From Nostoc punctiforme PCC 73102 (GTDB taxonomy: Bacteria > Cyanobacteriota > Cyanobacteriia > Cyanobacteriales > Nostocaceae): DNA of 32,000 nucleotides. A program made the translations under genes and the position numbers. Below are positions 10,268 to 31,429 of this stretch, piece by piece. The stretch spans positions 150,001 to 182,000 of the forward strand of contig NC_010631.1 of assembly GCF_000020025.1 (NCBI RefSeq), given 5' to 3'. The stretch's first letter is position 1, and each line of letters opens with the position of its first letter. The notes under the pieces were generated by a model. That model searched no databases, was not told where the DNA came from, and saw only the letters and a program-made list of their open reading frames with translations.

Positions 10268-10269
10268 TT

Positions 10270-12532: not shown

Positions 12533-12541
12533 AGTTTTAAT

Positions 12542-13555: not shown

Positions 13556-13649
13556 GTTCAACAATAAATAATAAAGTCCAACAATAAATAAAAAAGTTCT
13601 ACAATTTCTGGATGTGCATGGTCTGGGCAGATCCAGAAAGGTAAGCTTT

Positions 13650-14471
13650 ATGGCCAGAGGTAGGCAGGAGTGGACTCAAGCCAAGTTTGAACGCTACATC
13701 AAAGAAGGTCGCGGTCAAGGTAGTGGAGAGAAGTATAAGCCTTGGATCACTGTCTCCGATTTCTCCTCAATGGGCAGATCAGCAAGAAGCCCTGGTTGGA
13801 AGACCAATCGGGTGCATCATTTCTTATCAGACCATGAGCGGCGGCTGTTTTATCTGTTCGAGTGGTCAGATATTGTCGTAGATATCAGGGAGCAATTCCC
13901 CCTGCTCAACCTAGACTTATGTACGAGTATCGCTAGTGACATGGGAGTGAAATACCCCACTGACCCAGTTAGTGGTATACCTTACGTTTTAACTACTGAC
14001 TTCATGCTAACAGCCAATAAATCGGGTAAGTCAGTTCAAATTGCTCGAACAGTCAAACCATCTTCAGATTTGGAAAAAAAATCAGTAGCTGAGAAATTTG
14101 AGTTAGAAAGACGCTATTATGCTGACCAAAATATTGACTGGGGAATTGTAACAGAAAAAGAAATTCCCAGGCTTTTAGCTCTGAATATTGAGTGGATTCA
14201 TTCTTCCTACTCATTAGAAGCGACTACCGAAATGGCAGTTGAGGAACTACGAGGACTCTCAAGTATTTTAAAGTCTCGGCTCCAAAAAAGTAGTGCCACT
14301 ATCAACAAAGTGACAACAGCTTTAGACAGAGAAATGAATATAGAATCTGGGACATCACTAATGCTTTTTAAGCATCTGATTGCCACCAAAGAAATATTGA
14401 TGGATATGGAATCAACCAAAATATCTAGCTGTCCTTCAGTTCAAACAATTCAAAAAATTATTATTAAGTAA
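13650..14471 (+). CDS. tnsA: TnsA-like transposition endonuclease
   Basis: ORF 13614 (GTG)-14471; the ATG at 13650 (MARGRQEW) is preferred. YKPWITVSDFSSMGRS...VHHFLSDHERRLFYLFEWS...IREQFP...YVLTTDFML fits the TnsA N-terminal nuclease layout. It is the first gene after the element's end. Confidence 0.85.
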   Translation: MARGRQEWTQAKFERYIKEGRGQGSGEKYKPWITVSDFSSMGRSARSPGWKTNRVHHFLSDHERRLFYLFEWSDIVVDIREQFPLLNLDLCTSIASDMGVKYPTDPVSGIPYVLTTDFMLTANKSGKSVQIARTVKPSSDLEKKSVAEKFELERRYYADQNIDWGIVTEKEIPRLLALNIEWIHSSYSLEATTEMAVEELRGLSSILKSRLQKSSATINKVTTALDREMNIESGTSLMLFKHLIATKEILMDMESTKISSCPSVQTIQKIIIK

Positions 14472-14492
14472 TAGGGAATCAGGAAAAATTGA

Positions 14493-16721
14493 ATGAATAA
14501 TAATTTATTTGTCAACGACCTCATAGAATGGATAGACTCAGACCCTCCCAACTTGATTGAGAGAGTTCTGTGGATTGATTCTGGTTATAACATTGCCTTT
14601 GTTTTTGATATAAATGCCAAGAAAGGGTTTCCCGAAGCGAAAAAAGTTTCAGAAATAAGAGTTGCAATTCATACAGAACAAGCACTGAAGCTTAAACAAG
14701 ACCCTTGGGCAAGGCATTTGAGTGATGAAGATTTAACCAAGATACAAAAAGATTATAGAGAAAATGCTTGGTCACTAATTTCATCCCTGGTTGAAAAAGA
14801 ACCGGACATATACTATCGTTCGTCACGGGGTTCGCTTATCAAGCAGGTTGTTGAACAATATAACCAGGGGAGAAGTGAAAATAAATTAGTCGAAAAAACA
14901 GTTTATGAATATTTGAGAAGATTCTGGCAGAGAGGGAAAAATCAAAATGCGCTTTTACCTGACTATTCAAATTGTGGAGGTCTCGGAAAGCCCAAAAAAT
15001 GTGGAGAAAAGAAACGAGGAAGACCAAGAAAATATGCCCATGAACCAGAAATTGGTGTAGGGATTAATGTAACAGACGATGATCTGAAAATTTTTAGAAT
15101 TTCCATAGCCAAATTTTACAACAATGACAAACAGAATTCTTTGAGGACTACTTATAAATTAATGATTAGGGAATATTATTCATCAGATATTCGTTATGAC
15201 GAAAATGGGGTAAAAAAATCCCTATTAATTCCCCCCGAACTTAGGCCGACATTCACTCAATTGAAATATTGGTATGAAGTCGAACTATCAGATATCAAAA
15301 AAAGTATTACAGAACGAAAGGGAGCGAAAAGATTTGCTTTGGAGCATAGAGCAATTTTAGAAACATCTAAGATGGAAACCATTGGGCCCGGTTCTAGATA
15401 CCAAATTGATGCCACAATTGCAGATGTATATTTGGTTTCTAAATACAACTCTAACTGGATTATTGGCAGACCAGTAATTTATGTAATCATTGATGTTTTC
15501 AGCCGAATGATTGTGGGGGTTTATGTTGGTTTAGAGGGGCCTTCTTGGACAGGAGCAATGATGGCTCTAGCTAATGCAGCCACAGATAAAATACAGTTTT
15601 GTCAGGAATATGGCATTAATATTTCCTCTACAGAATGGCCTTGCCACCATCTGCCAGATGCAATTTTGGGCGACCGAGGCGAACTTGCAGGGATGGCAGT
15701 AGAGACATTAATCCCAAATCTCAATGTCCGAATTGAAAATGCTGCACCTTACCGTGCTGATTGGAAGGGTTTAGTAGAGAGGTACTTCCGTACAATTCAT
15801 GGTCATGTCAAACCATTTTTACCCGGTTATATAGACACAGATTTTAGACAAAGAGGGGGGCGAGACTATCGTCTTGATAGCAGAGTTAACATAGAGCAGT
15901 TTACTGAAATTATTATCCACTTAATTCGCTATCACAATAATCATCATTACCTGGCCAGTTATGATAGGGAAGAAATGATGATTACTGATAATGTAAATCC
16001 CATACCCATAGAATTATGGAAGTGGGGGATAGAAAATCGTTCTGGTAGACTCAGGACTTTTCCTGAAGATATAATCAAGCTAAATTTGATGCCAAATAAT
16101 AAAGCGACCATCACCGCTCGTGGCATCAAATTTAAGGGAATGTATTACAGTTGTGAGAAGGCATTGAAAGAATTCTGGTTTGAAAAAGCTAGAAGTAATT
16201 TGCTCTCCAAATCAGATAAATTATTAGATATTTCTTACGACTATCGCAAACCCAATTTTATCTATGTCCGCTCTCCTGATGGTAGAGATTTTGAGAAGTG
16301 CTTCCTTTTAGATCCAGAAGAGCGTTATTCTCAGAAAAATATACATGATATTGAATATTTACTCGCTTATGAAGAGTGGCTTTATCAGAAAAGTCAAGGC
16401 AATGAACTTCAAGCTTGTGTTGACTTAATAGCTGACATTGAAAGTGTTGTCAACAGAGCTAATGATTTAGCCTCTGTAACTGTTGATAATAGGGTAAGTG
16501 ATAACCAAAAAGTTGCTGGGATTAGGAGAAATAGAGCTTCAGAGAAGGCTAAACGACGCGACTATGAGGGGTTCGAGTTAGCTAAGAGAGAAACTCCTAT
16601 TCCTGAGACAGTTATGCCGAGCAAAAATTCTGACTCTAAAGAAAATAAATCATTACAGCCTGACCATTTGGAGCTTCTGAGAAAGAAGCGCCAGGAGCAT
16701 TTTAATGAACATAGAGAATGA
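14493..16721 (+). CDS. tnsB: TnsB-like DDE transposase
   Basis: 742 aa with an rve-type DDE core: YQIDATIADVYLV, VIYVIIDVFSRMIVGVYVG, ILGDRGELAG, and YRADWKGLVERYFRTIH (Mu/Tn7 family). Confidence 0.92.
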   Translation: MNNNLFVNDLIEWIDSDPPNLIERVLWIDSGYNIAFVFDINAKKGFPEAKKVSEIRVAIHTEQALKLKQDPWARHLSDEDLTKIQKDYRENAWSLISSLVEKEPDIYYRSSRGSLIKQVVEQYNQGRSENKLVEKTVYEYLRRFWQRGKNQNALLPDYSNCGGLGKPKKCGEKKRGRPRKYAHEPEIGVGINVTDDDLKIFRISIAKFYNNDKQNSLRTTYKLMIREYYSSDIRYDENGVKKSLLIPPELRPTFTQLKYWYEVELSDIKKSITERKGAKRFALEHRAILETSKMETIGPGSRYQIDATIADVYLVSKYNSNWIIGRPVIYVIIDVFSRMIVGVYVGLEGPSWTGAMMALANAATDKIQFCQEYGINISSTEWPCHHLPDAILGDRGELAGMAVETLIPNLNVRIENAAPYRADWKGLVERYFRTIHGHVKPFLPGYIDTDFRQRGGRDYRLDSRVNIEQFTEIIIHLIRYHNNHHYLASYDREEMMITDNVNPIPIELWKWGIENRSGRLRTFPEDIIKLNLMPNNKATITARGIKFKGMYYSCEKALKEFWFEKARSNLLSKSDKLLDISYDYRKPNFIYVRSPDGRDFEKCFLLDPEERYSQKNIHDIEYLLAYEEWLYQKSQGNELQACVDLIADIESVVNRANDLASVTVDNRVSDNQKVAGIRRNRASEKAKRRDYEGFELAKRETPIPETVMPSKNSDSKENKSLQPDHLELLRKKRQEHFNEHRE

Positions 16722-18381
16722 GTGGGAATGGGTTAAAATTCCCAACGGGGAATGGGCTGCTGTTGCTAAATACAGAGACCACAAGTTGTCTGAATATAAT
16801 ACAAATCCAATAATTCGCTCTCTTCCTCCTATCTTTTCTAGAGAGAAATTTGTTGAGTATGTGACACGACTTCCGACGTGCAAATCTTCAGAAAGAGAAC
16901 TAGAGCCTCAGTACAGATTTCACTGTATTGAGCGACTATCGAGATATTTTGACCCATTGAATAAAACCGTTGATTTACAACAGGTAGTTTGCGTATTAAT
17001 TATGCAAGGTTATCTGAGGCGAAATCCCTTGCAACCAGAATATGCACTGCGTAGCGGTCAAATTTATCAGGCGGTGCTTTCTGGAGGAGGTTTTAACTTA
17101 GAGGAGTATGTAGATGTTCCCACCTCGGCATCTGGGTTGACAATCATTGGGCCGTCAGGAATAGGCAAGACAACCAATCTCCTAAATATCCTCTCTTTAT
17201 ATCCCCAGGTGATTGTCCATCCAGCTCATAGTGTTTACCAAATTGTTTGGTTGAAAGTTGACTGTCCCCATGCCGGTTCTTTGAAGGGTTTGTGTATCGA
17301 CTTCTTCAGAGCTGTTGACAAATTACTCGGCACTAATAACTTCCAAAAATTTGGGGTAAAACGCAACTCTGAGGATTATATGCTGGCTCAAGTTGCCCAA
17401 ATTGCCCACACCCAACATTTAGGAGTTTTAGTTATCGATGAAATGCAAAATTTAGTAGCAGCCAGAAGAAATAGCTCCGAAATGTTGAATTTTTTGGTGA
17501 AAATGGACAATATTATTGGAGTCCCAGTAATTCGCGTTGGTACAAATGAGGCTTTCCCAATTCTTCAAGGTAATTTTAGAAATGCGAGAAGAGGTGTGGG
17601 AGAAGGGGGAGTAATTTGGGACAGGATGGAAAATAATCGGGAATGGAACTTTTTTATCGAAGGAATGTGGGAGTTTCAGTGGACAAAACAATATATACCG
17701 TTAACTGCAAATATTACCTCGGCTCTATATTATGAAAGCCAAGGAATTATTGATATCGTCATTAAACTCTATAAAATGGTGCAATGGAGAGCTATTGCTT
17801 TAGGGAGCGAAGTAATCACTGTTGACTTGATTCATGCTTGTGCTGCTGACGGTCTGCATCTAGTTAAACCAATGTTAGATGCTATTAGGTCTGGGGATGA
17901 GAAATGGATGATGAAATACAAAGATATTGCTCCATTGGACACAAATCTATACCGCAATAAGTGCTTAGATTCTCTTGAAGAAACAGATTTAGAAGAAGTG
18001 AGGAGATTAGCACGCTCATCACAGAGGATGGGTCACATATCAGCAACGCTACGTCATGTAATTATTGAACTGATTAATTTAGATGTTCCACCTGCTACTG
18101 CCAAGAGTTGTGCCGAAAAAGTTGTTACTCCTCATGGAGAAAATGCAGATAAAAAAGTGCTAATTAAAGAGGCTTATAAACTAGCTTTGCAATGCGGTAA
18201 TATTTCAACAGAGCCAGTTCAGCATCAAGAACGAAAAATAAAACTCCAACCGAAGTATCAGGAGAATGATATCCGAGTTATTGTTGAAAATGCGAAGAAA
18301 AATCAAACTCCAGCTTGTGAGGATTTGAAAGCTTTGGGGATTATTAAAGACCCACTCAAAGACTTTTTTATTGGTGAGTAG
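16705..18381 (+). CDS. tnsC: TnsC-like AAA+ ATPase
   Basis: 558 aa with Walker A IIGPSGIGKTT and Walker B LGVLVIDEMQNL. The start overlaps the tnsB stop by 17 nt. Confidence 0.9.
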   Translation: MNIENEWEWVKIPNGEWAAVAKYRDHKLSEYNTNPIIRSLPPIFSREKFVEYVTRLPTCKSSERELEPQYRFHCIERLSRYFDPLNKTVDLQQVVCVLIMQGYLRRNPLQPEYALRSGQIYQAVLSGGGFNLEEYVDVPTSASGLTIIGPSGIGKTTNLLNILSLYPQVIVHPAHSVYQIVWLKVDCPHAGSLKGLCIDFFRAVDKLLGTNNFQKFGVKRNSEDYMLAQVAQIAHTQHLGVLVIDEMQNLVAARRNSSEMLNFLVKMDNIIGVPVIRVGTNEAFPILQGNFRNARRGVGEGGVIWDRMENNREWNFFIEGMWEFQWTKQYIPLTANITSALYYESQGIIDIVIKLYKMVQWRAIALGSEVITVDLIHACAADGLHLVKPMLDAIRSGDEKWMMKYKDIAPLDTNLYRNKCLDSLEETDLEEVRRLARSSQRMGHISATLRHVIIELINLDVPPATAKSCAEKVVTPHGENADKKVLIKEAYKLALQCGNISTEPVQHQERKIKLQPKYQENDIRVIVENAKKNQTPACEDLKALGIIKDPLKDFFIGE

Positions 18382-18384
18382 TAT

Positions 18385-19722
18385 ATGCTCAGTTTTTTCC
18401 CTACGCCTTACCCAGATGAGATTTTATATAGCGTGTTTGCACGTTATCATGCCAGAAGTGGTAATATAAAGCCTGATGAAACGTTGCAAGAATTGTTCAA
18501 TTCCCGGAATATTATAGTTAGGCCGGACTTACCCTATAACTTAAGTTATTTAATTAAAAATCTTCCACTGCTCTCTCAACATACGTTAGAAAGTCTAATC
18601 CAAAAACATACACTGTACCCCATGTATGCAGTCTTTATGCCTGACAGCAAATCAGCTATTCTGGGTTACATGAAAGGAGAGTTGGGGACATATATTTATA
18701 GAGGAATAGCAAGCTCAGTTTATCTGCCAAAATATTTTAGGTTTTGTCCAAAATGCCTTTTTGAAAACTTGCATACATTTGGCGAGGCATATTGGCATCG
18801 ACTTCACCAAACACCTGGTGTTCTTGTCTGCACAATTCATGATGTTGTCTTAAACGATAGTATTGTACCTATCTGGAATAATCAGTGGTATCAAGTTGGT
18901 ATTGCTAGTTTGGAAAACTGTCCTATATCGAATGTAACGAAAAATTACAGTGAGTCCACTAAGGAGTTATTACGCCTAATTGCATCTGATATTGAGTGGT
19001 TAATGACCTGTGACTTCAAATCGCTTCCTTCTAAGGAATTAGATTGGTTTCATATCCAATATATAGTTTTATTGATTAAGAGGAATTTAGCGACTCTAGA
19101 CCGTCAGGTATATGAGCAAGGTTTACGACAGAAATTTTTGTCTTTTTATGGAAGTGAATTTCTTGAGGCTCTTGGTATAAATGTCAGTAACAATAACATA
19201 AATTTATTTAACATTTTTCGATTGCATTTGGAGGTTTTTGACCCGGTAATGCATCTGCTAATGATTAGATTTTTGAGGCATTCGCCTTCAACGTTTTTTG
19301 CTCGGAAATCTAAATATAAACCTTTTGGTAAGGGGCCTTGGCTTTGTCTAAATCCTGCTTGCGAACACTATCTCCATTCTGTGGTTACGAAGTTAGTGAT
19401 GCTTTTAAGCAATGATCTAGATTCGACCTATTCTTATATAAAAAATCCTATAGGGACTTTTGAGTGTGATTGCGGTTTTCAATATAGTAAGATTGGCGTG
19501 AATTTGACTAAAGTTGATAAGTTTCGATTTGAAAGAATCGTGACGTTTGGTCAATTATGGGAACAAAAGTATTTGGAATTAAATGTTGTTGATAGACTAA
19601 ATTTTCAGCAAGCTGCGTACAACCTTAGTTTTAATTATAGCAAGAGTCCAATGACTATGTTGCGTAAGCTAGAAGCTTTGTGGAAGTCTTTGAATGATAG
19701 TGTAGAAAAAGACGCCGGTTAA
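18385..19722 (+). CDS. tnsD: TnsD/TniQ-family target-selection protein
   Basis: 445 aa. The N-terminus FPTPYPDEILYSVFARYHARSG is the TniQ signature. A CCCH-type zinc finger follows (CPKC...C.IH). It starts 3 nt after the tnsC stop. Confidence 0.88.
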   Translation: MLSFFPTPYPDEILYSVFARYHARSGNIKPDETLQELFNSRNIIVRPDLPYNLSYLIKNLPLLSQHTLESLIQKHTLYPMYAVFMPDSKSAILGYMKGELGTYIYRGIASSVYLPKYFRFCPKCLFENLHTFGEAYWHRLHQTPGVLVCTIHDVVLNDSIVPIWNNQWYQVGIASLENCPISNVTKNYSESTKELLRLIASDIEWLMTCDFKSLPSKELDWFHIQYIVLLIKRNLATLDRQVYEQGLRQKFLSFYGSEFLEALGINVSNNNINLFNIFRLHLEVFDPVMHLLMIRFLRHSPSTFFARKSKYKPFGKGPWLCLNPACEHYLHSVVTKLVMLLSNDLDSTYSYIKNPIGTFECDCGFQYSKIGVNLTKVDKFRFERIVTFGQLWEQKYLELNVVDRLNFQQAAYNLSFNYSKSPMTMLRKLEALWKSLNDSVEKDAG

Positions 19723-19730
19723 TCAGACTC

Positions 19731-19904
19731 TATATTGTTGAACTTTTTTATTCAACTTTCTCGACCTGCGCTCTTCTACATTGGTAAACTGAACTCAACT
19801 GAGGACAGTTATTGTTCAACTTTATTTTTCTGGCATCTGTGATGGATAACCAAAAATTAAGGGTTGTAGCTCTTGAAATTGTTGAACTTTATTATTCCTC
19901 TACA
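19731..19904. repeat. Element A tniQ-distal end with repeated putative TnsB-binding sites
   Basis: ATTGTTsAACTTT-type motifs occur near 19736, 19811 and 19878, and the region ends in CCTCTACA. Confidence 0.8.
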
Positions 19905-19976
19905 CTTGATATACATGTGACTGTAACTGTGACTTACACCATAAGTTGTCCGTAACGGACAGCTTATGGTTAAAAA

Positions 19977-20684
19977 TTATCCAAAGTTTGTAGGCGGCAA
20001 AAATTGCGAGGGTTCTTTAGCAACCAGATCCTCGACATCATCGAACCACATAAACTGCCAAGTCAGTCTGTCTCTGCGATGAGAGGAAACATCTCCTATC
20101 AACAGATGCTGCCATGAATTTTCTGAGTTTTCAGCCACTACCTGTTCATCAAGGTTTTGGTTGATTCTAAAACCACCTAACCATAGATGACAGCTTGAGC
20201 AATATCCTGGACGAGAACATCTAGTCAACGGTGGAAACTGCTTGTCACAGTGAGGACACTGCTCAATCAGAGTTTGATGTTCGTGGTGGGGGCAAAATTT
20301 GATTGTGTTGACTAACCACAGCAGTGGATTGTAGATTATTCGATTCTGGGTACGCCAACTGGCGTAACACAATGGACACCAAGCTTGGTACAAGCGCAGA
20401 AAACTAAACTCAAAGGTCAAACTTGCCCACTTTAGGGGTGACAAATTAGCTAAATCTCGACGTAAAGTTAACTCCTCAAGAACCTGAATTAGAGTTGTAG
20501 CAAAAATACCTCTGATTTCATTTGCAGATGCTAAAGAGTGGTGAATTCCAAAAAAATTATTAATGATGTCTATGGGACTTGTTTGAGACATTTTTTGCCC
20601 CATCAAGGGAAGAATCTGAGACAAAATTAATTGTTCGGTAGTAGTAGAATGATGTTCAGCAAGACGAGCTACATACCCGCTCAA
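19977..20684 (-). pseudogene. tniQ: tniQ remnant of element B (N- and C-terminally truncated)
   Basis: It aligns to residues ~40-250 of the element-C TniQ (YVARLAEHHS..., WCPLCY, CPHH...CPHCDKQF, GYCSSCHLWLGG). The ~270 C-terminal residues are missing, and the stop lies 49 bp from the element tip. Confidence 0.8.
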
Positions 20685-21024
20685 GCTTTCTACGTAGATT
20701 GTACCAATACCAATAGGCTTCTGCTGGAATTGCTTCTATTCCTGCAACTGGAATTTGGCAGGTATTGTAACTCATGGATGTTAATGCCTCTTCCAATAAC
20801 AGTTTTTCGGCTCGCAGCCTTAAAGTCGTTTTGCCCACACCTGCCGGTCCAACAACAAACAGAACACAAATATCTGTTTGTTGTTGAAGATTGATTAATA
20901 AAGCATCTAAAGCTTGCCTTAAACGTAAATGTCCAACTGTAATGTTATGAAAATAGTCCAACCGCTCTGTTGAGGATTTTGTTAGTAATTCTTGTGGAAA
21001 TGGACGTTGGAAATTCATTACCAC
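20656..21024 (-). pseudogene. tnsC: tnsC remnant of element B (first ~100 codons only)
   Basis: It matches the element-C TnsC up to VAGIEAIP, including Walker A GPAGVGKTTL. The reading then continues, in another frame, into tniQ sequence (PIGIGTIYVESLSGYVARL). This indicates an internal deletion of roughly 0.9 kb. Confidence 0.85.
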
Positions 21025-23740
21025 AGCTCCTGTTGAGAGTACGGTTGGATTCGCCTGGGATTAATTTCTTGAGCCTCTAATTTATTTGGCAGTCTTAGTT
21101 CTTCTGTAATATTATTTTTAATATCGGCTAAATCTTCTTTAACAACAGATTGTGCTTGTTTCACTATTTTAGAAGACACAATTTGACGAACTCCAGTTGC
21201 TGCCAAATCTCGTAATCGTTGTATTTGTAAAGTCTCTTGAGCTTCGGCTGATTCTAGATACTGTGCTAAGTCCTTAGCCTTAATTGTGACTTTCTGGTTG
21301 TACTGCTTTTTCTGCTGACGTATTTCGATGCTAGCAAGCCGAATTTCTCGTTCAGAATGTCCTTGTAACGATGAATAATGTTGTGAAATACAACGCACCC
21401 AAGCATTTTTGACATAGGCATAAGCCGTACCCACATCCCAGGGATCATATCTAATAGGTACTTGGGTTCCTTCAACTTCAGGATGGAGAAAAGAATCATC
21501 TATTGACCAGTAGTAAATATGGTTAACTTTTACCCCAAGCTTTGGTATAACTTTGGCGCTTCCTTTTGGAGTTGATGGCAAAGTAAAAATCTGAAAATTT
21601 TCATCATTAATAATTCTTTGACCAAAGCGCATTCCACTTTGAGTTAAGCCCTTTTCAAATGCAACACATGGTGATTGTCCTAGTGCAGGATGTTCTCTCT
21701 GGTCATAAATTACATAAATATATTCACAAAAATACTCATATATTTCCGGTAACGTCCATACAGCTTGTGCCTTTGGATTATTCGTCTTATTCACTAAGCG
21801 AATTTGCTTTGTAATTTGGGTGTTTCCTTTCAGGTTGTAGAAGAATTCAGTATGACTGGTGCCAAAAAAACGTTCAATTATTGAACCAAATCTAGGACTA
21901 GCAACAGGGCGTTGTTTCTTTATACAACCAAATGCTGCTAAAAGAGTTTCAAAGTAAATACTGCCAAATTCTACACCGTTATCTACTACCAAAGTTTCTG
22001 GTAACCGCCCTAGTCTCTGTACGCAAATTCGTACACCATCATGCAGGAGCGATAGGACGGCGGGTCAAAAGTCAAATAGATAGCTAAAATACGCCGGGAA
22101 AAAGCATCAATCAAAACGGTTGCCCAAGGTCTACCCAAACAACATCCTGTCCTTTGGCAAACTAACTCAATATCTAACTCGGTATGGTCAATGTGACAAA
22201 TTTCAAAGGGACGACTTCCGTGGCAAGGTGTCGAGAACGTTAATTCATGATAAAACGAGCTTTTTTGGTAAGCTGCTCGATTTCCTTGCCTCTTACGAGT
22301 TTGTCTATGATCTGCTCTACTGTTGATCCGCTTGTAAAACGTAGTACGGCTGGGGCAAGGGTCTGTTTTTCCCGCTTTTTCCCATTCTCTTGCCAGAATA
22401 CCGTAAGTTGTCAGTTTATTTCTCTGTTTAAAATTCTCGTAATGCTGCTCAATAATTTTATCGATGAACTCCCAAGTTTGATCTGAAAATCGCTCAACAC
22501 GGTTTCCTTTGTCTTTACGATTTGGCAACAAACCAATGTAACCCCAACCATAGGTTTCCTCTGCGGAATGATATTTGGCTTTCCATCTGCGAATTGTTCG
22601 CTCAGACACAGGACTATTGGTTGGCGGATCTTTATGCAGATATGGTTCAATGATTTTCTGACGGTAGTTAGCTACGGCTAAGTCTTCTGGGCTAGCGCAT
22701 TTTAGCTGTTCCCAAATTTGAGTTGATTTTACTCCTTGAGCTTCAATGCCAGTAATTTCTTTTTGTGAAATTAGTGTTTCAAAGTCTGCATGGCTTAACC
22801 CAATTAGATGATTTTCACCTTGCAAAACAATTTTTTTCTCTCCAATCTGAATTACAGATAAACTTTTTCCATCCCAGAACACCGTTGCACCAACCACCAC
22901 ATCAATCTGTTGCCCCTTATCGAGGGTGGCAGCAGCCTTTTTAGACATGATTAAGTTATAAGCTTCTGCTACCTGCTGGCTACTAAACAGATGAACTTTT
23001 TCTGGTTCACTCAACCCTATGCCTTTCAAATCTACATATAACTGCTTTGTTGCAATCAAGGCATAAATATCATCTACCCAACTGGTACTTGTTGATGAGA
23101 GTAATTGTTTCAGGGTCATCCCCGGATTAGCTGTAACAGATTCAATAATTTTTGTCCTTGCTTCTGGATTAACTATATTCTCTTGGCTCAAGTAAACTCT
23201 GAGAAACTGATGGTTGCGGTAAGCAATCCAGTTTATTTCCTGATCTGTACGAAGGTGATAGTAAAGCCCCAATGATTGAACTTTAGTTTCTACCGGTGGA
23301 GCCTGCCATTTACCATTTTCGTTTTGTTGATACCTTGTGGGTTGTTTGTGAGTGAGTGTTTTGAGACGTTCGCTAGTTTTCCATTCTTCAAACCCTGCAC
23401 AGTTATGCCGAATCACTAAGAAATCAGGAATATGACTCGTCACCACCCTACGCCCGCTTTTCGACTCAAATGATATGCTTAGACGAACTGGTTGGTCATA
23501 GTACTCCAGAACATCTTCGTCGTTTTCGTACTTTACGATCGCAGGCAATTCTACTTTGTGGGACTCAAACTGAATCGTTTTTCCCATTTTGTGGCTTGGG
23601 TAGCTACCACAAACATTTTTCGTCCCGCCACCTACTTTCCTTACAGGCTCCGAACAACGGATTTGCTGTACAAATTCTTTTGTCGTCTCTGGTAAACCGA
23701 GCCGATGACACCATTGTTCAAATTCTTGGTCACTGAGCAT
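21018..23740 (-). pseudogene. tnsB: tnsAB-type transposase gene of element B, disrupted by a 1-nt frameshift
   Basis: ORFs 22010-23740 and 21018-21992 are colinear with the element-C protein. At about 22033 the frame breaks: ...CMMV then, in the -1 frame, RICVQRLGRLPETLVVDNGVEFG. Compared with element C (gtattaaga versus gtgtacgaa), one T appears to be missing. Confidence 0.85.
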
Positions 23741-24026
23741 ACAGAAATCTGTAACTTTCGGACTGTTTATGCTTGAATAATGAACTTTCGGTCACTTTAT
23801 CATTTCAAAACACTACTTTTACTGTTCGGCTACTAAACGTAATAATCCGCTTTTGGACTTCTATTTGTCACTTAAAGGATATTGTGGCCGTTTTTAAACC
23901 ATAAAGTGGCCGCAGTCATCTGAACTGGTAAGTATAAATATTTATATCAATAAAAGACTGTTTAACTGGCGAAAGCCTAGATTTGTGGTAAGAGCTTGTT
24001 GCGGCTTTAAAAGCTTGGGGGCCAAT

Positions 24027-26636
24027 ATGTTGAGCGACCAAGAGTTTAATGATTGGTGTCGCGGCGTAAATTTACCACAAGAGGCTAGGCAATTAATTTC
24101 CCAAATCCGTGCCTCTGAACCAATTCGGCGAGTCAAAAGCAGTGGTATAAATGTCCGGGGCGACTACGCCAGTCGCAAAATGGGAAAAACTATTCAATTT
24201 GAGTCCCATAAAATTGAATTGCCAGGTGTAGAGGAGTACGAAGAAGACGCAGATGTACTCGAATACTACGACCAAGCATATCAAATTACTCTAGAATTCC
24301 CCTCAAGCAGTGGGGAAATAATCAAAGCTTCGCATATACCAGACTTTTTCGTAATTCGGAAGCGGAGTGCAGGTTTTGAAGAGTGGAAACCAGAATCAAG
24401 ATTAGAAAAATTAGCAGCTAAACAATCACAACGTTATATGCGTTCAGAAGATGGGCAGTGGTTAAACCTGCCAGCAGTTGCTTATGCAGAAAAATTAGGA
24501 CTGTATTACCGAATTCGGTTAGATACAGAAATTGATTGGATTAAATACAGAAATCGACTATTTCTCAAAGCCTATACTACTGAAGATTACCAAATTGACC
24601 CAGAAATAGCTGAAAATTTGGTGAAGTTAATTAGCTTAAATCCGGGCATAAGTTATTGGGAAATGATTCATACTCAACAGAGCAATCCTGATGACATAAA
24701 TGCTTTAATAGCTACAAAAAAAATTTACATTAATTTGAGTGCCGCACCCTTAGCAGAGCCAGAAAAAGTACAGCTTTTCCGTGACCAAGAAATCGCGGTA
24801 GCTTATGTACAAATGATAAAATCGCAACCGAATAATGGAACGATTCTGAATATTTTAGATGTTAAACCCAATCAACTGGAACGTAAAACTCATAATCAAG
24901 TAAAAATGTCTCCAAAAGCAATGGAGCGTTTTTTGAGAGCTAGTCCTGAAGACTTGGCAGAAGCTAACCGAAGATATGAAGTAATTGAACCTTATCTTAA
25001 TGACAGTTATAGAGATAAAGAAACTGTTCCACAACGTACTATTCGCAGATGGAAGGCTAAGTTTATAGCAGCACAAAAGGCGTACAAATGTGGTTATATT
25101 GGGCTGCTAAATAACTCTAATGCTAGAGGCAATCGCTTACCCAGAATTTCTCAATCGTCTCAAGATTTCATTGACAAAATAATTGAAGAATATTATGAAA
25201 CTTTTCAACAAAGAAGCAAACTAGCTGTTTATGGAATTCTAGCAAGAGAATGGGAGAAAGCAGGTCTAACAGATAAGCTGCCTAGCTACGCTACATTTTG
25301 TTCTAGAATTCAACATCGTTCTGGTTATAGGCAAACAAAAAAACGTAAGGGAAACAGAGCAGCTTATCAACAATCTTTATTGTATTGGGAGTTGAAATTA
25401 ACCACACCATGTCATGGCGACCGTCCATTTGAGATAGCACACATTGACCATACGCAACTGGATATTGAGTTAGTATGCTCCCGAACAGGTTATCTTCTTG
25501 GTAGACCTTGGGCAACTCTGTTAATCGATGCTTACAGCCGACGTATTCTCGCAGTTTACCTAACTTTTGACGAGCCAAGCTACCGTAGTTGCATGATGGT
25601 ATTAAGAATCTGCGTACAGCGATTTGAGAAATTACCAGAGACAATAGTTGTTGACGGTGGGACAGAATTTAGTAGTACATACTTTGAGACCTTGTTAGCG
25701 GCTTTTGAATGTACCAAAAAGCAGCGACCAGCTGCGAAAGCCAGATTTGGTTCAATTATTGAACGTATTTTTGGAACTACAAATACAGAGTTTTTTTATA
25801 ATCTTAGAGGCAACACTCAAATTACTAAGAATGTCCGCCAAGTCACGAAATCAAATAATCCCAAAAATCAAGCTGTTTGGACACTAGATCAACTCTACGA
25901 AAACTTTTGTTCATATTGTTACGAATTCTATGATTGCAGAGAACATCCAACATTAGGACAAAGCCCACGTCAAACTTTTATGTCAGGGCTAAATTCAAGT
26001 GGTTATCGCCCTCAGAAACAGATTATTTATGATGATAATTTTAAGATTTTTACCTTACCTTCTACACCTAAAGGAACTGCAAAAGTTCAACCAAGTAGAG
26101 GCGTGAAAATTAATTATCTCTACTATTGGTCAATTGATGATTCGTTCATAAGACCAGAAATTGAAGGAACTAATGTACCTATTCGTTACGACCCTTTTGA
26201 TATGGGGACTGCTTATGCTTACGTTAAGGGACGTTGGATACGCTGTATTTCTGAACATTACAAATCCTTCCAAAATCGTTCCGAAAAAGAAGTGAACATA
26301 GCCAGCACACAATTACGTCGAAAAAGGCAGAAACACGCTCAAAGAATTACTCTATCTGCCCAAGAAAAAGCTACATATTTAGAAGGAACTGAAGCCCAAG
26401 AAACTTTGTTATTACAACGCTTACATGATTTAGCACAACAAGATATTTGGGTTTTAATTGAAAAAAGCTCAGTTATTGAAAGTAAATTAAGTAAACACAA
26501 TTATTCAGCTAATGTTCAAGATGTAGATAAAAATATTTTGGCAGGTTCAGAAAGCATTAAAAAGCCAAAATCATCAGCAAAAAAATTAATAGATTTAACC
26601 AAAATAGAAGCTTACAATACAGAGGAGCTATGGTAA
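24027..26636 (+). CDS. tnsB: Transposase with TnsA-like nuclease N-terminal domain fused to a TnsB-like DDE domain
   Basis: I take the start at ATG 24027 (MLSDQEF, as in the element-B homolog). The N-terminal region QFESHKIELP...VLEYYDQ...SHIPDFFVIRKRSAGFEEWK has an E...PDF...ExK layout. The DDE core is AHIDHTQLD, LLIDAYSRRILAVYLTF, VVDGGTEFSS. Confidence 0.9.
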   Translation: MLSDQEFNDWCRGVNLPQEARQLISQIRASEPIRRVKSSGINVRGDYASRKMGKTIQFESHKIELPGVEEYEEDADVLEYYDQAYQITLEFPSSSGEIIKASHIPDFFVIRKRSAGFEEWKPESRLEKLAAKQSQRYMRSEDGQWLNLPAVAYAEKLGLYYRIRLDTEIDWIKYRNRLFLKAYTTEDYQIDPEIAENLVKLISLNPGISYWEMIHTQQSNPDDINALIATKKIYINLSAAPLAEPEKVQLFRDQEIAVAYVQMIKSQPNNGTILNILDVKPNQLERKTHNQVKMSPKAMERFLRASPEDLAEANRRYEVIEPYLNDSYRDKETVPQRTIRRWKAKFIAAQKAYKCGYIGLLNNSNARGNRLPRISQSSQDFIDKIIEEYYETFQQRSKLAVYGILAREWEKAGLTDKLPSYATFCSRIQHRSGYRQTKKRKGNRAAYQQSLLYWELKLTTPCHGDRPFEIAHIDHTQLDIELVCSRTGYLLGRPWATLLIDAYSRRILAVYLTFDEPSYRSCMMVLRICVQRFEKLPETIVVDGGTEFSSTYFETLLAAFECTKKQRPAAKARFGSIIERIFGTTNTEFFYNLRGNTQITKNVRQVTKSNNPKNQAVWTLDQLYENFCSYCYEFYDCREHPTLGQSPRQTFMSGLNSSGYRPQKQIIYDDNFKIFTLPSTPKGTAKVQPSRGVKINYLYYWSIDDSFIRPEIEGTNVPIRYDPFDMGTAYAYVKGRWIRCISEHYKSFQNRSEKEVNIASTQLRRKRQKHAQRITLSAQEKATYLEGTEAQETLLLQRLHDLAQQDIWVLIEKSSVIESKLSKHNYSANVQDVDKNILAGSESIKKPKSSAKKLIDLTKIEAYNTEELW

Positions 26637-27769
26637 AAATTCAGTCGCACTCTTTTCCAGAAGAACTTCTCTTACAGCCGAACGAAATTAAAACTGATTA
26701 TTTCAAAAGTATCACTATTCCACATCAAAGGCTCAAACAAGCCTTAGATACTTTATTAATTAATATTCTGGAGCCAGCTGACACTTTAGTATTTTTAGTT
26801 TTTGGTGTGACTGGTGTAGGAAAAACAACCTTACGCTTGCGTCTGGAAAATCTGCTAAATTACGAATTTCTCCCCTCATTACGCCAAAATCCTGGTCAAA
26901 TTGCTGTTGCTGGTATTGAAGCTATTCCAACAGAACAAGGAAAGTTTAGCTATAAAGATTATTACACTCGCGCCCTAGAATCCCTTCAGGAAGTTTTGAT
27001 TGAATACAAAATTGATTATGAAATTCCTCACGGTGAGGTAAAGGATTTGGGGTTGCTAAATCGGGCTTACCGCCAAGATTCGCCCGCATTACGCCGAGCA
27101 ATGGAAAAAGCATTTCGTTATCGTCAGGTAAAAGCTTTTACTGTAGACGAGGCACAGCATTTATTTATGATGGCAGGCGGACACCAGATGTTACAGCAAA
27201 TGAACTGGATTAAGTCTATTGCTAATCTTACTGGTACAGTACATATTTTATTTGGAACTTATGAACTGCTTAACTGTCCTACCTTGAATGGGCAAATAGG
27301 GCGGCGTAGCGAAGATATTCACCTGTTACCTTACCAAGCTGATAACCCAGAAGATATTGCTGAATTTATTAGAGTAATTAGAACTTTTCAACGCCACATT
27401 CCGCTTGTACAAGAACCAAAATTAGAACAACACTATGAGTATCTTTTTTCTGGCTCAGTTGGTTGTGTGGGGCTATTGAAGAATTGGTTAACTCGTTCTT
27501 TGAGAGTTGCCTATTCTGAAGAAGCTCGGACTCTTAATAGCAAACATCTTAAATTAGGTGCTTTTTCTGCATCTCGTATCAACAAAATTAAGGAAGAAGC
27601 ACAACAGGGATTTAAACGCTTTCAAGAAGAATCCAGTTTTTTTGAGCGGCAATATTCAACAGAACATGGAATAAAAATGCCAGCCAAAAATTCCCTACTC
27701 AAAAAAGGTCGTGTTGGACAAAGAAAACCTAAAAGAGATGATGTAGGGGTAAATTCAGATGATGACTAA
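26630..27769 (+). CDS. tnsC: TnsC/TniB-like AAA+ ATPase
   Basis: 379 aa with Walker A FGVTGVGKTTL and Walker B AFTVDEAQHL. The start overlaps the upstream stop (ATGGTAA). Confidence 0.9.
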   Translation: MVKIQSHSFPEELLLQPNEIKTDYFKSITIPHQRLKQALDTLLINILEPADTLVFLVFGVTGVGKTTLRLRLENLLNYEFLPSLRQNPGQIAVAGIEAIPTEQGKFSYKDYYTRALESLQEVLIEYKIDYEIPHGEVKDLGLLNRAYRQDSPALRRAMEKAFRYRQVKAFTVDEAQHLFMMAGGHQMLQQMNWIKSIANLTGTVHILFGTYELLNCPTLNGQIGRRSEDIHLLPYQADNPEDIAEFIRVIRTFQRHIPLVQEPKLEQHYEYLFSGSVGCVGLLKNWLTRSLRVAYSEEARTLNSKHLKLGAFSASRINKIKEEAQQGFKRFQEESSFFERQYSTEHGIKMPAKNSLLKKGRVGQRKPKRDDVGVNSDDD

Positions 27770-29345
27770 CATGGCGGTTAACGATGAATTGTGGCTCAAA
27801 GACCCAGAATTTACTCCCAGTCCTAGCCGGTTGTTTCATCTGGAACCGATTGGACTTGGTACTTGTTATGTTGAAAGTCTGACTAGCTATGTTGCTCGTC
27901 TAGCCGCAGCTCATAGCGTATTGCCTGGAACTTTATTGGCTAGAGAGATAAAACCAATAGTTGGGCATAACCATACTACCAATCCCTTGAATTCTAAAAG
28001 TATCGTAAGTTTGTATGGACAAGCTTCTGTAAAAGCTTTAAACGGAACACAAATTGGAGCTAAACAACTGGTTTTTGCTCTAGAAATATTGACAAAACGT
28101 ACTGACTTACAGTTTTTGACAATGCTACCTTGGGCAAAAGTCTTCCCAGTTTTGGGATTGCTCAAGCATTCTCATGCTTGGTGTCCTTATTGCTATCAAG
28201 ACTGGTTAAATAATCAACAAGTCATTTATTCACCTCTGCTGTGGGCTTTGAAACCAGCTAACATTTGTCCCATCCATTATCGATTTTTAGAATCAAAATG
28301 TCCTCACTGTGACCTTGAATTTTTACACCTGTGGCATAACTCACGACCTGGATTTTGTCTGAAATGTGGTGGTTGGTTGGGGATGAACTATGAAGTATCT
28401 TTGCCAGATAAGAGATTGTTCGAGGAGATACCCAATTTACAGCAAGAGATTTGGATAGTTAAGACTTTAGGAGATTTAATTGCTCAAGCTCCTGAATTTC
28501 CTTGTCCACCTCCAAGAGAGACTATTAAAACAATCCTAGAAGCTTACGTCTATCAATATACTCAAGGTAATGTTTCCGCTTTTGGTCGTTGGCTTGGGTT
28601 ATCGAGATATGAAATTCTACATTGGTATTCAGGTGTAGCCATCCCAAATTTAGATAAACTTTTGAAAATCTGCTACGCCTTATCAACTAATCTTGTCGAT
28701 TTTCTTCAACTTAAAATACTACCTCTTACTCTTAAGCAGCTAGTTTCTCTACCTGCTCCTAAACAGAAAAAATTATCATCACAGTCTGCTTTAGTTACTT
28801 CAAATAGTAGTCCTAAGTGCGAACGAGTTATTCAGGCGATGCAACTAGCTCAAGAAGAAGAACCACCTCCTTCTTTAACTCAATTAGCTGTTCGTTTAGG
28901 ATTCAAAACTCCTAGTAGTTTAACTGCTTGCTCAAAATCTTTATCAGCATCTTTGGCTACTAGATATAGTGAATATCAACAGCAGCTAAGATTTTTACAC
29001 ATCAGAGACATACTTGAATTAGCTTTGTTTAGCGACGAGTATCCACCACCTTCTCTAAGAAAAATAGCTAAGAGAACTGGTATTGGTTTGGCTACTTTCT
29101 ACCACTATTGCCCTATTGTGTGCCATGCTATTTCTTTACGCTATAAAGATTACCGCAAATTCGTCCATAAACTAGCTATTGAGCAAGGCTGTCGAGAAGT
29201 ACGCCAACTCGCTTCAGTACTTCATGCACAAGGCATTACCCCTACTGCTAAAAATCTCAGAAAATTTATGCCTCATCCCTCTTTGCTGTGGCAGGCTGAG
29301 GTAATTGATGTTTTAAGGCAGATAAGACTGGATCTTTCACAGTAA
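27759..29345 (+). CDS. tniQ: TniQ/TnsD-family target-selection protein
   Basis: 528 aa. TniQ N-terminus (ESLTSYVARLAAAHS), zinc-finger cysteines (WCPYCY, CPIH, CPHCD, CLKCGGW) and a long helical C-terminal half. It overlaps the tnsC stop by 11 nt. Confidence 0.88.
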   Translation: MMTNMAVNDELWLKDPEFTPSPSRLFHLEPIGLGTCYVESLTSYVARLAAAHSVLPGTLLAREIKPIVGHNHTTNPLNSKSIVSLYGQASVKALNGTQIGAKQLVFALEILTKRTDLQFLTMLPWAKVFPVLGLLKHSHAWCPYCYQDWLNNQQVIYSPLLWALKPANICPIHYRFLESKCPHCDLEFLHLWHNSRPGFCLKCGGWLGMNYEVSLPDKRLFEEIPNLQQEIWIVKTLGDLIAQAPEFPCPPPRETIKTILEAYVYQYTQGNVSAFGRWLGLSRYEILHWYSGVAIPNLDKLLKICYALSTNLVDFLQLKILPLTLKQLVSLPAPKQKKLSSQSALVTSNSSPKCERVIQAMQLAQEEEPPPSLTQLAVRLGFKTPSSLTACSKSLSASLATRYSEYQQQLRFLHIRDILELALFSDEYPPPSLRKIAKRTGIGLATFYHYCPIVCHAISLRYKDYRKFVHKLAIEQGCREVRQLASVLHAQGITPTAKNLRKFMPHPSLLWQAEVIDVLRQIRLDLSQ

Positions 29346-29494
29346 ATCTTATTTATTCGCCTTTCTCTAAGGTTTTACTACTGCGGCCACTTTATGCTTT
29401 AAAAACGGCCACAATATCCTTTAAGTGACACTATTGCGGACAACTTATGGTTTCAAAAACGGACAGCTTATGGTGTAAGTCACAACCAACATGC

Positions 29495-29831
29495 TGTCGG
29501 TTTGCAGACTAAATGAAATTTGTGCGGACTAAGTGAAATTTTGTTGCAGACTAATTGAAAATCTGCTTGTGTAACCCTCATTCTTTCGTAATCCCAGAGC
29601 GTAGGCGTAGCCCGCCGTAGGCATCGCTACTTACAAAGTTTTGCTTCAAAGCCTTGTGCGGTAATAAATTGGGACGTTTTATGTCCATTTTGTGGAAAAT
29701 TTCATTTAGTCTGCGAATTTAGGGGGAAAATTTCACTTAGTCCGCGAAAAAATTTCATTTAGTCTGCAACAAAGGTTCCTCAAACCCTTATTATTACGTT
29801 GAAAAAATTTCATTTAGTCTGCAAACGCACA
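29495..29831 (+). mobile_element. Non-autonomous mini Tn7-like element (MITE-like), copy 2
   Basis: By eye it is identical over all 337 bp to 13219-13555 and in the same orientation. It is flanked by ATGC on both sides. It lies 10 bp outside the tip of element B. Confidence 0.85.
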
Positions 29832-30215: not shown

Positions 30216-30428
30216 TTAATTACAAAAATCATCAACGCGGATATCCCGCCAGACATCAGACACTTGCCAGCCGGAATTGCCCACCGATTGTACTGGAGGA
30301 TTGTCAAGGAACGGAATATAGTCAGGAACTCTAGGCTCTGAAATTGCTACTGGTTTCTCCTCAACCTCAACCACAGGGGCTGGAGAATTGACAAGAACTC
30401 TTGCATAAATATTTTGTGGTGTAATCAA
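30216..30428 (-). CDS. Possible small hypothetical protein (70 aa)
   Basis: This is the only ORF in the region without a competing overlap at its 5' end, and it has an AT-rich upstream region. No recognisable family and no clear RBS. Confidence 0.3.
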   Translation of the reverse strand: MITPQNIYARVLVNSPAPVVEVEEKPVAISEPRVPDYIPFLDNPPVQSVGNSGWQVSDVWRDIRVDDFCN

Positions 30429-30599
30429 GAGTTATTTTAATTTAAATATTGGGACATTAAAATAGTAAGAGGCTATCATCTTTTTATAGCAAGTATTCTC
30501 TGGAGATGGTTAATTAAAAATATATCAGCAAACATCACTTTAGTTATTAATTAATACTGAATACTGAAAATATTGGATAAATTTGATTTTTTATACGAT

Positions 30600-30770
30600 T
30601 TATAGAGCTAATTCGTGATTATAAATTCCTACAATTAAATTTGACCTTAACCCAAAACGTCGGTGACGATTTCGATATCTATCAGATAAAATTTTAAATA
30701 TCTTTAGACGACGATTAACGTGTTCAACAGTAATTCTTAATCGATTGAGTTCTCGATTATATTTCAATAC
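30600..30770 (-). pseudogene. C-terminal fragment of an IS5-family-like DDE transposase
   Basis: The minus-strand translation is ...NRELNRLRITVEHVNRRLKIFKILSDRYRNRHRRFGLRSNLIVGIYNHELAL*. This is the conserved C-terminal tail of a common cyanobacterial IS transposase. No upstream part is present. Confidence 0.7.
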
Positions 30771-30785
30771 GGTTCAGTTAAAGCT

Positions 30786-31376
30786 AAAAAGCTGATGAGT
30801 GATGTGAAATTTCGGAACTTCTACTTGTTGTCCATCCCCTCTGTGTTGCGGTTTTTTAGAACGAAACTTTGATACAGGTTTTTTCACAACTCTGGGATTA
30901 ATACGGTGAATACGTTCAGGTAACAACGTATCTAAAATCTCGACAATTAACCAATCGAAAAAAAGGGAAATTCTTCTGGCTGTAAGTCTTGGAACTTAGG
31001 GATAGCGCGACTAATGACCCTTAATGTACCTGTAAAACTCAAGCGTAATGGTAGCAATCCTAGCAGTAGTTGCAGCTTGAAACATTAACACTCGTACAGG
31101 TACTCGCCAATATTTACCAACTTTTACCCATCCCACAGAAAGACCATCGACTAAGTTTTTTAGTACATCTCGCATCGAATCTCTTGACCACAAGCTCATT
31201 GCTACCACAAGACACACTACCAAATGTGCTGGTAAAGAACGATTCCTTGCTTCGTTGGCTTCGCTTGTTGCGATTGCTTGCTCAATGGCGGTTGCAGGTA
31301 TAGCTGTCTCTATTGCTTTCAGCAAGTCCTTGCTTTGTATCATTGGAGACAGCAAAGAGAAATCTTTGAGATGCAC
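30786..31376 (-). pseudogene. Degraded IS4-family-like transposase gene (N-terminal region plus frameshifted continuation)
   Basis: ORF 31011-31376 contains RSLPAHLVVCLVVAMSLWSRDSMRDVLKNLV, an IS4-type N-terminal domain pattern. Downstream, several short frames (e.g. IVEILDTLLPERIHRINPRVVKKP) are broken by stops. Confidence 0.55.
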
Positions 31377-31429
31377 GACAGTTCACTTTCAGTGTTGATT
31401 ACAATCCTTAATTTACACAACTTTGAGCC

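Follow-up and report, generated by a model that had tools for sequence, protein, structure and literature searches.

Recurrent placement of a cargo-less Tn7-like transposon family of cyanobacteria inside the ends of other Tn7-like elements

We examined a 32,000-nucleotide stretch of DNA from Nostoc punctiforme PCC 73102 (contig NC_010631.1, positions 150,001 to 182,000; hereafter the window), in which an intact Tn7-like transposon, element C (positions 23866–29430 of the window, 5565 bp), sits inside one end of a related, decayed Tn7-like transposon, element B (19928–29484 with C inside). C transposed into the right end of B, just inside the second terminal binding site, by the staggered 5-bp cut that is usual for Tn7-like elements, and a 5-bp duplication was made at the site. 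Relatives of C are placed in the same way elsewhere: the flanks compared show a preference of the C family for one position relative to a tip-like motif, 47–49 bp inside many different Tn7-like ends and in either orientation. Taken as a whole, these observations are best explained by a recently active C whose family inserts at a specific position in Tn7-like ends, with its TniQ protein as the likeliest guide; we assign a probability of roughly 80% to this reading as a whole, and one only somewhat above even to guidance by TniQ. The nesting of C in B had been put forward in an original prediction.

Element C in the right end of element B

Direct reading, a scripted comparison and a repeat finder agreed on the limits of C. 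Its terminal inverted repeats are 51 nt long and occupy positions 23866–23916 at the right, tnsAB-proximal end (plus strand) and 29380–29430 at the left, tniQ-distal end (minus strand; delimited by the repeat finder and contig ends). They are identical at 50/51 positions (repeat I4, 98%), in agreement with the earlier count of 49 of 50. The end sequence reads TGTCACTTAAAGGATATTGTGGCCGTTTTTAAA[C/G]CATAAAGTGGCCGCAGT; the tips, TGTCAC...GTGACA, are of the TGT...ACA form, and each end carries two direct putative TnsAB-binding sites, GGATATTGTGGCCG and CCATAAAGTGGCCG. A perfect 5-bp target-site duplication, CTATT, abuts both tips on the plus strand. Its right copy (29431–29435), established by sequence reading and the scripted comparison, is where it had been predicted, while the left copy had been placed at 23871–23875 and in fact lies 10 nt away, at 23861–23865, where it reads AATAG in the orientation of B and forms nt 50–54 of the B right end.

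Between its ends C contains only three overlapping genes and no cargo, all on the plus strand. The first, tnsAB (24027–26636), encodes a fused TnsA-TnsB transposase of 869 amino acids, with an ATG at 24027 (the mechanical open reading frame (ORF) opens at a GTG at 23985). It is followed by tnsC (26630–27769), for an AAA+ regulator of 379 amino acids with Pfam matches to AAA_22 and TniB, and by a tniQ/tnsD-like gene (27759–29345) for a putative target selector of 528 amino acids. The transposase has Pfam rve and Mu-transpos_C domains and matches the 898-residue 'Integrase' chain of PDB 9bw1 (E=1.7e-270); precomputed Pfam assignments for its 869-residue homologues list TnsA_N (weak), rve and Mu-transpos_C. 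The TniQ protein has a Pfam TniQ domain at residues 30–177 and also keeps a C-terminal region, residues 9–321 and 412–512 being aligned with the TnsD chain of PDB 8v32/9bw1 (E=1.1e-79). PMC11915506 mentions target-bound PmcCAST complexes that contain TnsD and TnsAB, to which these PDB entries appear to correspond. With its TnsB-type DDE transposase, AAA+ TnsC, TniQ, TGT...ACA ends and 5-bp duplication, C is a Tn7-like transposon. Because its transposase and TniQ match the TnsAB and TnsD chains of 9bw1/8v32, we place it, by homology, in the cyanobacterial fused TnsA-TnsB clade of Hsieh and Peters (PMC9881144).

Joining position 23865 to 29436, not 23875 as first proposed, restores a right end of B that reads TGTGACTTACACCATAAGCTGTCCG TTTTTGAAACCATAAGTTGTCCG CAATAG AAGTCC... 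and is 174 nt long between tip and ATG. The first 26 nt of this end pair in inverted orientation with 19928–19953 at 25/26 positions (repeat I9), and because of this pairing we take B to span 19928–29484. The outer 49 bp of the end (29436–29484, minus strand; repeat I9), comprising the tip TGTGAC... and two direct binding sites, are colinear with intact B right ends and are severed by C from the rest of B. The inner part (23741–23860, minus strand), with the TTATTACGTT motif and the putative sites ATAAAGTGACCG and ATAAACAGTCCG, runs up to the B start codon at 23740. At the other extremity lies the left-end tip TGTGACTTACACCATAAGTTGTCCGT (19928–19953, plus strand), followed by an inverted binding site. 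As predicted, C sits 49 bp inside the tip of B, within the B right end and head-to-head with the B transposase gene. Its distance from the B start codon is 125 nt; the predicted 135 bp carried over the 10-nt error.

The genes of B, on the minus strand, are broken. An ORF of 576 amino acids ended by a frameshift (22010–23740), with Pfam TnsA_N and TnsA_C matches at residues 74–238, and one of 324 amino acids (21018–21992), with Mu-transpos_C from the C-terminal part, together make up one frameshifted tnsAB. Downstream lie remnants of tnsC (20656–21024, 122 amino acids, about the first 106 codons) and of tniQ (19977–20684, 235 amino acids). Plasmid pn2 of Nostoc sp. UHCC 0926 harbours an intact B with the same left tip, a 4894-bp element whose proteins have 907, 376 and 275 amino acids. 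The two B ORFs of the window are 98.8% and 97.5% identical to residues 1–569 and 584–907, respectively, of the intact 907-residue protein, and the tniQ remnant corresponds to residues 41–275 of the intact short TniQ. At the nucleotide level the window B aligns with the pn2 copy in two blocks (98.3% and 96.6% identity) and differs from it by one frameshifting gap in tnsAB and a 902-bp deletion, with a junction near 20718–20722, through which tnsC has lost its 3′ part and tniQ its first 40 codons. The decay of B is thus as had been predicted. No matching duplication surrounds B in the window (flanks GTAAC and ACCAA) or in pn2, and an exact-protein look-up with the 576-residue ORF returned no record. 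The proteins of B and C are homologous, as expected, but the by-eye estimate of 55–60% identity was too high: we measured 51.8% for TnsAB, 51.2% for TnsC and 41% for the N-terminal part of TniQ.

We searched for uninterrupted B right ends, the comparison that could have spoken against an insertion, and found two, both colinear through the junction. The first is on an ENA contig (L057; loci outside the window are numbered L001, L010 and so on) that encodes a 907-residue TnsAB 98% identical to that of B. It aligns with the restored B right end without gaps and with 272/275 identities, the alignment starting exactly at the TGTGAC tip; beyond the tip, the flanks of L057 and the window are unrelated. 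The second is the pn2 copy, which reads ...CTTCTACTACGGACAAC... at the site, whereas the window minus C and one copy of the duplication reads ...CTTCTATTGCGGACAAC.... Both intact copies have a single pentamer there, CTACT, and the outer 49-bp segment in the window is identical at 46/49 positions to the tip of these C-free copies. Right ends built on the same plan as that of B were also seen in relatives more distant from B and C, in Pseudanabaena (L015) and Leptolyngbyaceae (L020), with TnsAB about 54% identical to that of C: two direct terminal sites, a spacer, the TTATTACGTT motif, two further sites and the ATG.

That C is intact, as had been predicted, is supported by its three ORFs, which have the same lengths as their homologues, and by four contigs from independent SRA runs that are 99.96–99.98% identical to the window copy over up to the full 5565 bp. 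In the assembly collection, 60 blocks have the identical TniQ, every time on a contig of less than 10 kb, and 46 blocks have the identical TnsC, on only the same short contigs. Several of these short-read contigs begin or end at, or within a few nucleotides of, the TGTCAC/GTGACA tips, which is the expected signature of a repeat collapsing in short-read assembly. One contig with a 99.98% identical copy (L001) runs past the left tip into a host end unrelated to B, and the same element was therefore inserted independently elsewhere. These comparisons show that C has been active recently and is multi-copy. A look-up of P0110, a C-like TnsAB on a 354-kb Nostoc punctiforme contig, returned no record. 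In L027 (9268–14034), a copy of C with an internal deletion has tnsC and tniQ fused into an ORF of 317 amino acids; it is directly adjoined by genes of the cyclic oligonucleotide-based antiphage signalling system (CBASS) type (DncV-like nucleotidyltransferase, E2/ThiF, JAB and SAVED), and the flank there is not a host tip.

The insertion position in other transposon ends

A single nested insertion is unremarkable by itself, since nesting inside Tn7-like transposons is common (PMC8649781). We gathered the flanks of C-family elements by a genome scan with the C TnsAB (11 loci, many of them contig-limited), look-ups of TniQ homologues, a plasmid collection and a metagenome scan for the C-family tip pattern. 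In the 42 distinct flanks of at least 60 nt that made up the census, a recurrent layout was seen: a C-family tip, 5 bp, 47–49 bp and then a foreign Tn7-like tip (...AAGTCACA, ...AAATCACA or ...AAAGCACA). Of these flanks, 22/42 had a tip-like heptamer, A[AG][TGA]NACA, with its last base at +52 (7 flanks), +53 (11) or +54 (4); none of the 42 had it ending at +51 or +55. At all other positions of these flanks there were just 4 occurrences of the heptamer (0.0011 per position), and about 0.13 flanks would be expected to show it at these three positions by chance. A value of 22/42 is near the maximum possible, because each insertion has one tip-side flank. The placement first seen in the window, 47–49 bp inside another element's end, thus recurs in other Tn7-like ends.

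The 47–49-bp host segments are diverse, with site types GTCCG, TGGACA, GTGACC, TTGCC, GATGACC and others. Near-identical copies of C (97–99.98%; window, L001 and L012) adjoin entirely different 48-bp segments, which are therefore target DNA and not part of C. A second complete case was obtained from L013/L042, in which a perfect ACTGC duplication surrounds a 5670-bp relative with perfect 56-bp inverted repeats. Plasmids p057_H and p057_A of Nostoc sp. C057 carry the intact right end of another decayed element, E, reading TGTGACTTGAAGAAGATTTTGGACA GGTTTGGAAGAAGAAATTGGACA / GGTTG..., and on p057_G of the same strain the left tip of C is fused exactly after nt 48 of the E right end. The 'E-type' junctions of Nostoc C057 and TH1S01 had been considered as exceptions, an interpretation that we dropped, as the intact E copies show the same position in the opposite orientation.

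The layout can be repeated in series. In the metagenomic locus L039 (590–750), the left tip of an element X is followed by 5 bp, 47 bp of the right end of an element Y, a further 5 bp and 47 bp of the tip of an element Z, so that three elements are serially nested. The ends of X and Y are nearly identical, and immunity against closely related ends appears to be absent here. In the two cases in which the host end could be typed without doubt (B in the window and Y in L039), it was the right end both times, and the duplicated pentamer was AATAG in both. Some hosts show less of an end: L016 and L054 have pseudo-tips at the same distance that share only the terminal 8–10 nt and no recognisable binding sites, L031 and L024 have near-matches to the tip motif at this distance, and in L033 (54–106) the C-family tip is followed by a 48-bp segment consisting of just two inverted terminal sites (TGTGATTTAAACCATATTTTTGCG and TGTCATTATATGGTTTAAGTCACA), which may be an extremely reduced two-tip remnant. 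The original prediction had reasoned that target immunity would not protect B from C. This was reasonable but understated, as C-family elements show a preference for this position in the ends of other elements; such ends appear to be sought by the family and not merely left unprotected.

Candidate selectors of the position

In the model that we favour, the 528-residue TniQ of C would bind the terminal 8–13 bp or so of a foreign end (consensus ..GGTnnAAGTNACA), a TnsC ring would assemble on the adjacent 25 bp or so, and the TnsAB transpososome would integrate about 50 bp from the recognised motif. Immunity against foreign ends would be weak or would fail because the C transposase would bind their sites poorly, and other transposons would offer C a harmless landing site and a ride on to whatever the host element moves to.

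We lean towards the TnsD-like TniQ as the selector that recognises the tips, on grounds of homology and spacing. First, its retained C-terminal region aligns with PmcTnsD, and in relatives TnsD's C-terminal region is described as DNA-binding and essential (PMC11837452). Second, the distance of the motif matches that in the tRNA- and CRISPR-array-targeting relatives, which have a conserved motif 40–50 bp from their left end (PMC11837452): the host tip of the C family lies at +42 to +54, and the T-arm of the tRNA gene beside a relative in L017 lies at +43 to +53 from the left tip of that element. Third, the pseudo-tips of L016 and L054, which lack binding sites, were used at the same distance. 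Fourth, B-type elements, with a related transposase and a TniQ of 275 amino acids, do not show such a flank motif; by eye, we found the tip motif at the C-family distance in 0/4 B-type flanks. Whether the C family as a whole consists of cargo-less 'end hunters', whose TnsD-like selector evolved to recognise the terminal 8–13 bp of other Tn7-like ends, is in our judgement an even question.

Several points weigh against position-specific, TniQ-guided insertion. Orientation is mixed: of the junctions that could be typed, 9 have the left end toward the host tip and 5 have the right end there. A strong orientation is the norm for TnsD-directed insertion, and the C family does not keep to a single orientation, which may reflect the identity of the two ends of C over 51 bp, if that assumption holds. 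A duplication on both sides was verified in two cases only, the window and L013/L042. Five loci that span a whole element (L011, L014, L022, L024 and L027) have flanks without a matching duplication; these are metagenome or metagenome-assembled-genome contigs that cross a 5.5-kb multi-copy repeat with ends identical over 51 bp, and their mismatched flanks likely stem from chimeric assembly or from recombination between copies. The events are not fully independent, since many of the junctions were read on short metagenome contigs and some of the host ends are related to one another. About a dozen flanks are without the motif and cannot be placed on the inner side of any host end (for example L022, the left flank of L027, L038, L041, L048 and L050). 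Moreover, the tip of C itself fits the target consensus, which leaves self-avoidance without an explanation, and the role given to TniQ is drawn from homology and spacing.

A different selector is conceivable, though we hold it to be unlikely: TnsAB, of C or of the resident element, would occupy the two terminal sites of the host, and the edge of the complex or a bend at nt 48/49 would attract the TnsC and transpososome of C. Landing at the boundary of site 2 in either orientation would then be expected. In B, E and most host ends the insertion does fall where the second binding site ends on its inner side, both orientations are seen, and the host-tip consensus is the generic terminal binding site of the clade, which the C tip fits as well. 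The TnsC of Tn7 reportedly responds to distorted target DNA (Rao, Miller and Craig, 2000), a further point in favour of this alternative. Set against these points, the host binding sites are too diverse for likely cross-binding by one transposase, the pseudo-tips of L016 and L054 with only the terminal 8–10 nt are used at the same distance, and B-type elements, which have a transposase of the same clade without the long TniQ, lack the pattern in their flanks. In addition, transposase bound to end sequences in the target repels insertion in Tn7 and Mu (PMC11406308). Other or mixed mechanisms take whatever probability the TniQ and transposase models leave.

We regard it as very improbable that weakly specific insertions of C occurred by chance and were kept by selection, the copies inside mobile elements surviving as harmless. 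Mobile elements inside Tn7-like transposons are indeed common (PMC8649781), and the cargo-less relative Tn5469 is regarded as untargeted (PMC9881144; PMC11406308). Such a process would, however, permit any position, whereas the 22 distinct flanks put the host tip at +52 to +54 only, against about 0.13 expected, and the same nucleotide position is used in hosts of unrelated sequence. Finally, although the 47–49-bp segments of different loci are alike in layout (two sites, then ..ACA), it is scarcely credible that the 49-bp 'B tip' is the outer part of a compound left end of C, or that the junction is an assembly artefact, since near-identical copies of C adjoin wholly different segments, contigs of C stop at or within a few nucleotides of the GTGACA tip, the window segment matches the tips of intact B copies without C, and the duplication flanks C alone and not C plus the segment.

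Two other candidate determinants were considered and rejected. The TTATTACGTT motif differs in its distance and orientation to the junction between B and the hosts in L013 and L027. The fourth base of the tip, as a mark of non-self (G in hosts) and self (non-G in C), is contradicted by GTGACA host tips in L032, L037, L045 and L049 and by the near-identical host in L039. The likeness of the host tip to the tRNA T-arm (GGTTCAAATCACA versus GGTTCAAGTCC) holds only in the orientation opposite to that in the tRNA-adjacent L017; it is unproven and possibly coincidental. As an observation in its own right, the TTATTACGTT motif or a close variant occurs in the window at 23803–23816 (B right end) and 13510–13525 (within a miniature element described below), in L015 and L020, and in the host ends of L013 and L027. 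Several cyanobacterial Tn7-like elements that otherwise differ have it in the inner part of their right ends, at varying distance and orientation; a host-factor site and a piece of the transposase promoter are possible roles.

Neighbouring elements, known systems and implications

The window contains a third Tn7-like transposon, element A (13198–19904), which has separate tns genes: tnsA (13614–14471), tnsB (14493–16721), tnsC (16705–18381) and tnsD (18385–19722; Pfam TnsD and TniQ). Its tips read TGTAGAGGAATAA[A/T]AAAGTTC, with GTTCAACAAT-type repeats, and its left tip is just 23 bp from that of B. No matching 5-bp duplication surrounds A, with CCCAG on one side and CTTGA on the other. A 337-bp miniature element occurs twice in the window (13219–13555 and 29495–29831), the copies being identical at 337/337 positions. 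Its ends resemble Tn7-like ends, TGT[C/G][G/C]GTTTGCAGACTAAATGAAATTT, with three repeats on one side and four on the other; the repeat motif has 15 matches in the window, against an expectation of 0.07. Flanked by (A)GTTC, one copy of the miniature element is located within the A right end, 21 bp from the A tip; the other is 10 bp outside the right tip of B, with flanks ATGC. It is thus a second kind of element sitting at Tn7-like ends. No autonomous parent of it was found within the window.

We compared plasmid pNsp_b of Nostoc sp. ATCC 53789 (L066, 1395–1815) with positions 13100–13197, 19905–19927 and 29485–29831 of the window. It has the second miniature copy at the orthologous site with the same flanks, ..CCAACATGC / ATGCGATCGC.., and is without A and without the B-C composite at the corresponding points, ..CGATAAAAATCACTTTC CTTGATATACAACACTTTC ACCAACATGC; about 100 bp upstream there is instead the left tip of a further Tn7-like element. 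Next to A, on its right-end side, the conserved block ACAAAATAAG.ACCCTTATCTTTTATCCGATATAA is a possible attachment site or insertion hot spot. Further left in the window are three consecutive CHAT-domain genes with many TPR repeats (223–8066; 459, 948 and 1224 amino acids), relatives of which, about 85% identical, are found on plasmids of Nostoc UHCC 0302, and then a block (8376–12533) with a tyrosine recombinase (10270–11277), XisI (11796–12131) and XisH (12119–12532). This block is 88–93% conserved on several Nostoc plasmids and has the intact B as its direct neighbour on pn2, so that the window probably derives from a Nostoc plasmid or plasmid-like region. An IS5-family insertion sequence or remnant (about 30380–31400; ORF 31011–31376, minus strand) is found right of the cluster, and the same kind of insertion sequence truncates the copy of C on p057_G (L010, 6860–7990).

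Among described systems, the minimal Tn7-like transposons that target CRISPR arrays (Chacon Machado and Peters 2025, PMC11837452) share much with C. They belong to the same clade, have a fused TnsAB, TnsC and a single TnsD-like TniQ, are cargo-less, about 5 kb long, multi-copy and insertion-sequence-like, and insert at a set distance from a short repeat, the motif lying 40–50 bp from an element end. Their target, however, is the CRISPR repeat, whereas that of C is the terminal motif of other Tn7-like ends. The TniQ of C keeps its C-terminal region, whereas the array-targeting TnsD is without the C-terminal helix-turn-helix region (PMC11837452). It is about 37% identical to a homologue of the array-targeting family on a plasmid of Allocoleopsis PCC 7113. 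The C family is found in both orientations, the array-targeting elements in one. We saw no CRISPR array in the C-family flanks read, which were transposon ends with a 23–25-bp spacing of sites. Differing in target, C-terminal region and identity, C is not a member of the array-targeting family.

Tn5469 of Fremyella diplosiphon (Tolypothrix PCC 7601) was reportedly described by Kahn and Schaefer in 1995 as a 4904-bp element with proteins of about 909, 375 and 272 residues. From its size and gene layout, which resemble those of Tn5469, we infer membership of B in the Tn5469 group; the B TnsAB has 70% identity to a protein from the Tn5469 host strain, Tolypothrix PCC 7601. Like C and B, Tn5469 is cargo-less, with a fused TnsAB, TnsC and one TniQ, and Hsieh and Peters count it in the fused TnsA-TnsB clade (PMC9881144). 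It is considered untargeted (PMC11406308). In contrast to this group, C has a 528-residue TnsD-like selector, and its TnsAB and TnsC are only about 50% identical (as measured against B).

The TnsAB and TniQ of C are close homologues of the 9bw1/8v32 chains, and the TnsD of PmcCAST (type I-B2) and McCAST (type I-D) homes to tRNA genes. There, insertion is offset from the site bound by TnsD, with the left end nearest the target (PMC11915506; PMC11837452). Unlike these systems, C is without CRISPR-Cas genes, a second TniQ or cargo, and its target is the end of a mobile element. A scan for tRNA genes in the window and 11 related loci found none, except for L017 (9986–15375). The relative there is cargo-less (TnsAB 911, TnsC 383 and TnsD 480 amino acids), its left tip is 31 nt from the 3′ end of a tRNA-Leu gene, and it is a minimal tRNA-homing member of the same clade as C.

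The 'res hunters' Tn5053/Tn402 provide a precedent for the targeting of a site in another transposon family by a TniQ element: like C, they are Tn7-like relatives with a single TniQ whose target is a functional site of other transposons (PMC11406308). Tn5053, however, is without TnsA, uses resolvase and targets resolvase-occupied res sites in Tn3-family elements and plasmids, while C targets the terminal repeats of its own superfamily. Target immunity in Tn7 repels insertion near its own ends (PMC11406308), whereas the C family prefers foreign ends and, in L039, used nearly identical ones. Within the literature searched, which was limited in coverage, we found no description of Tn7-like elements that target the ends of other Tn7-like elements.

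Tn7-like elements serve as a model for tightly controlled target choice, and CRISPR-guided integration tools are built on them. Among the targets to which proteins are known to guide them are glmS, tRNA genes, comM, res sites and CRISPR repeats; the targeting of other Tn7-like ends, if true, would add a new class. Beyond the prediction of a single nested insertion, our comparisons show that the insertion position is characteristic of the C family across many hosts, which contradicts the expectation from target immunity and poses to that model the question of why ends attract here when they normally repel. With three genes, 51-bp ends and a short, apparently degenerate recognition motif, the family is a compact natural system. 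It would also offer a mechanism for the nested and tandem Tn7-like clusters on Nostoc plasmids. If the interpretation is right, C-family elements would be parasites of transposons that invert the usual logic of target immunity: by splitting the terminal binding sites of a host from the rest of it, they would disable competitors or ride along with them, and build nested stacks.

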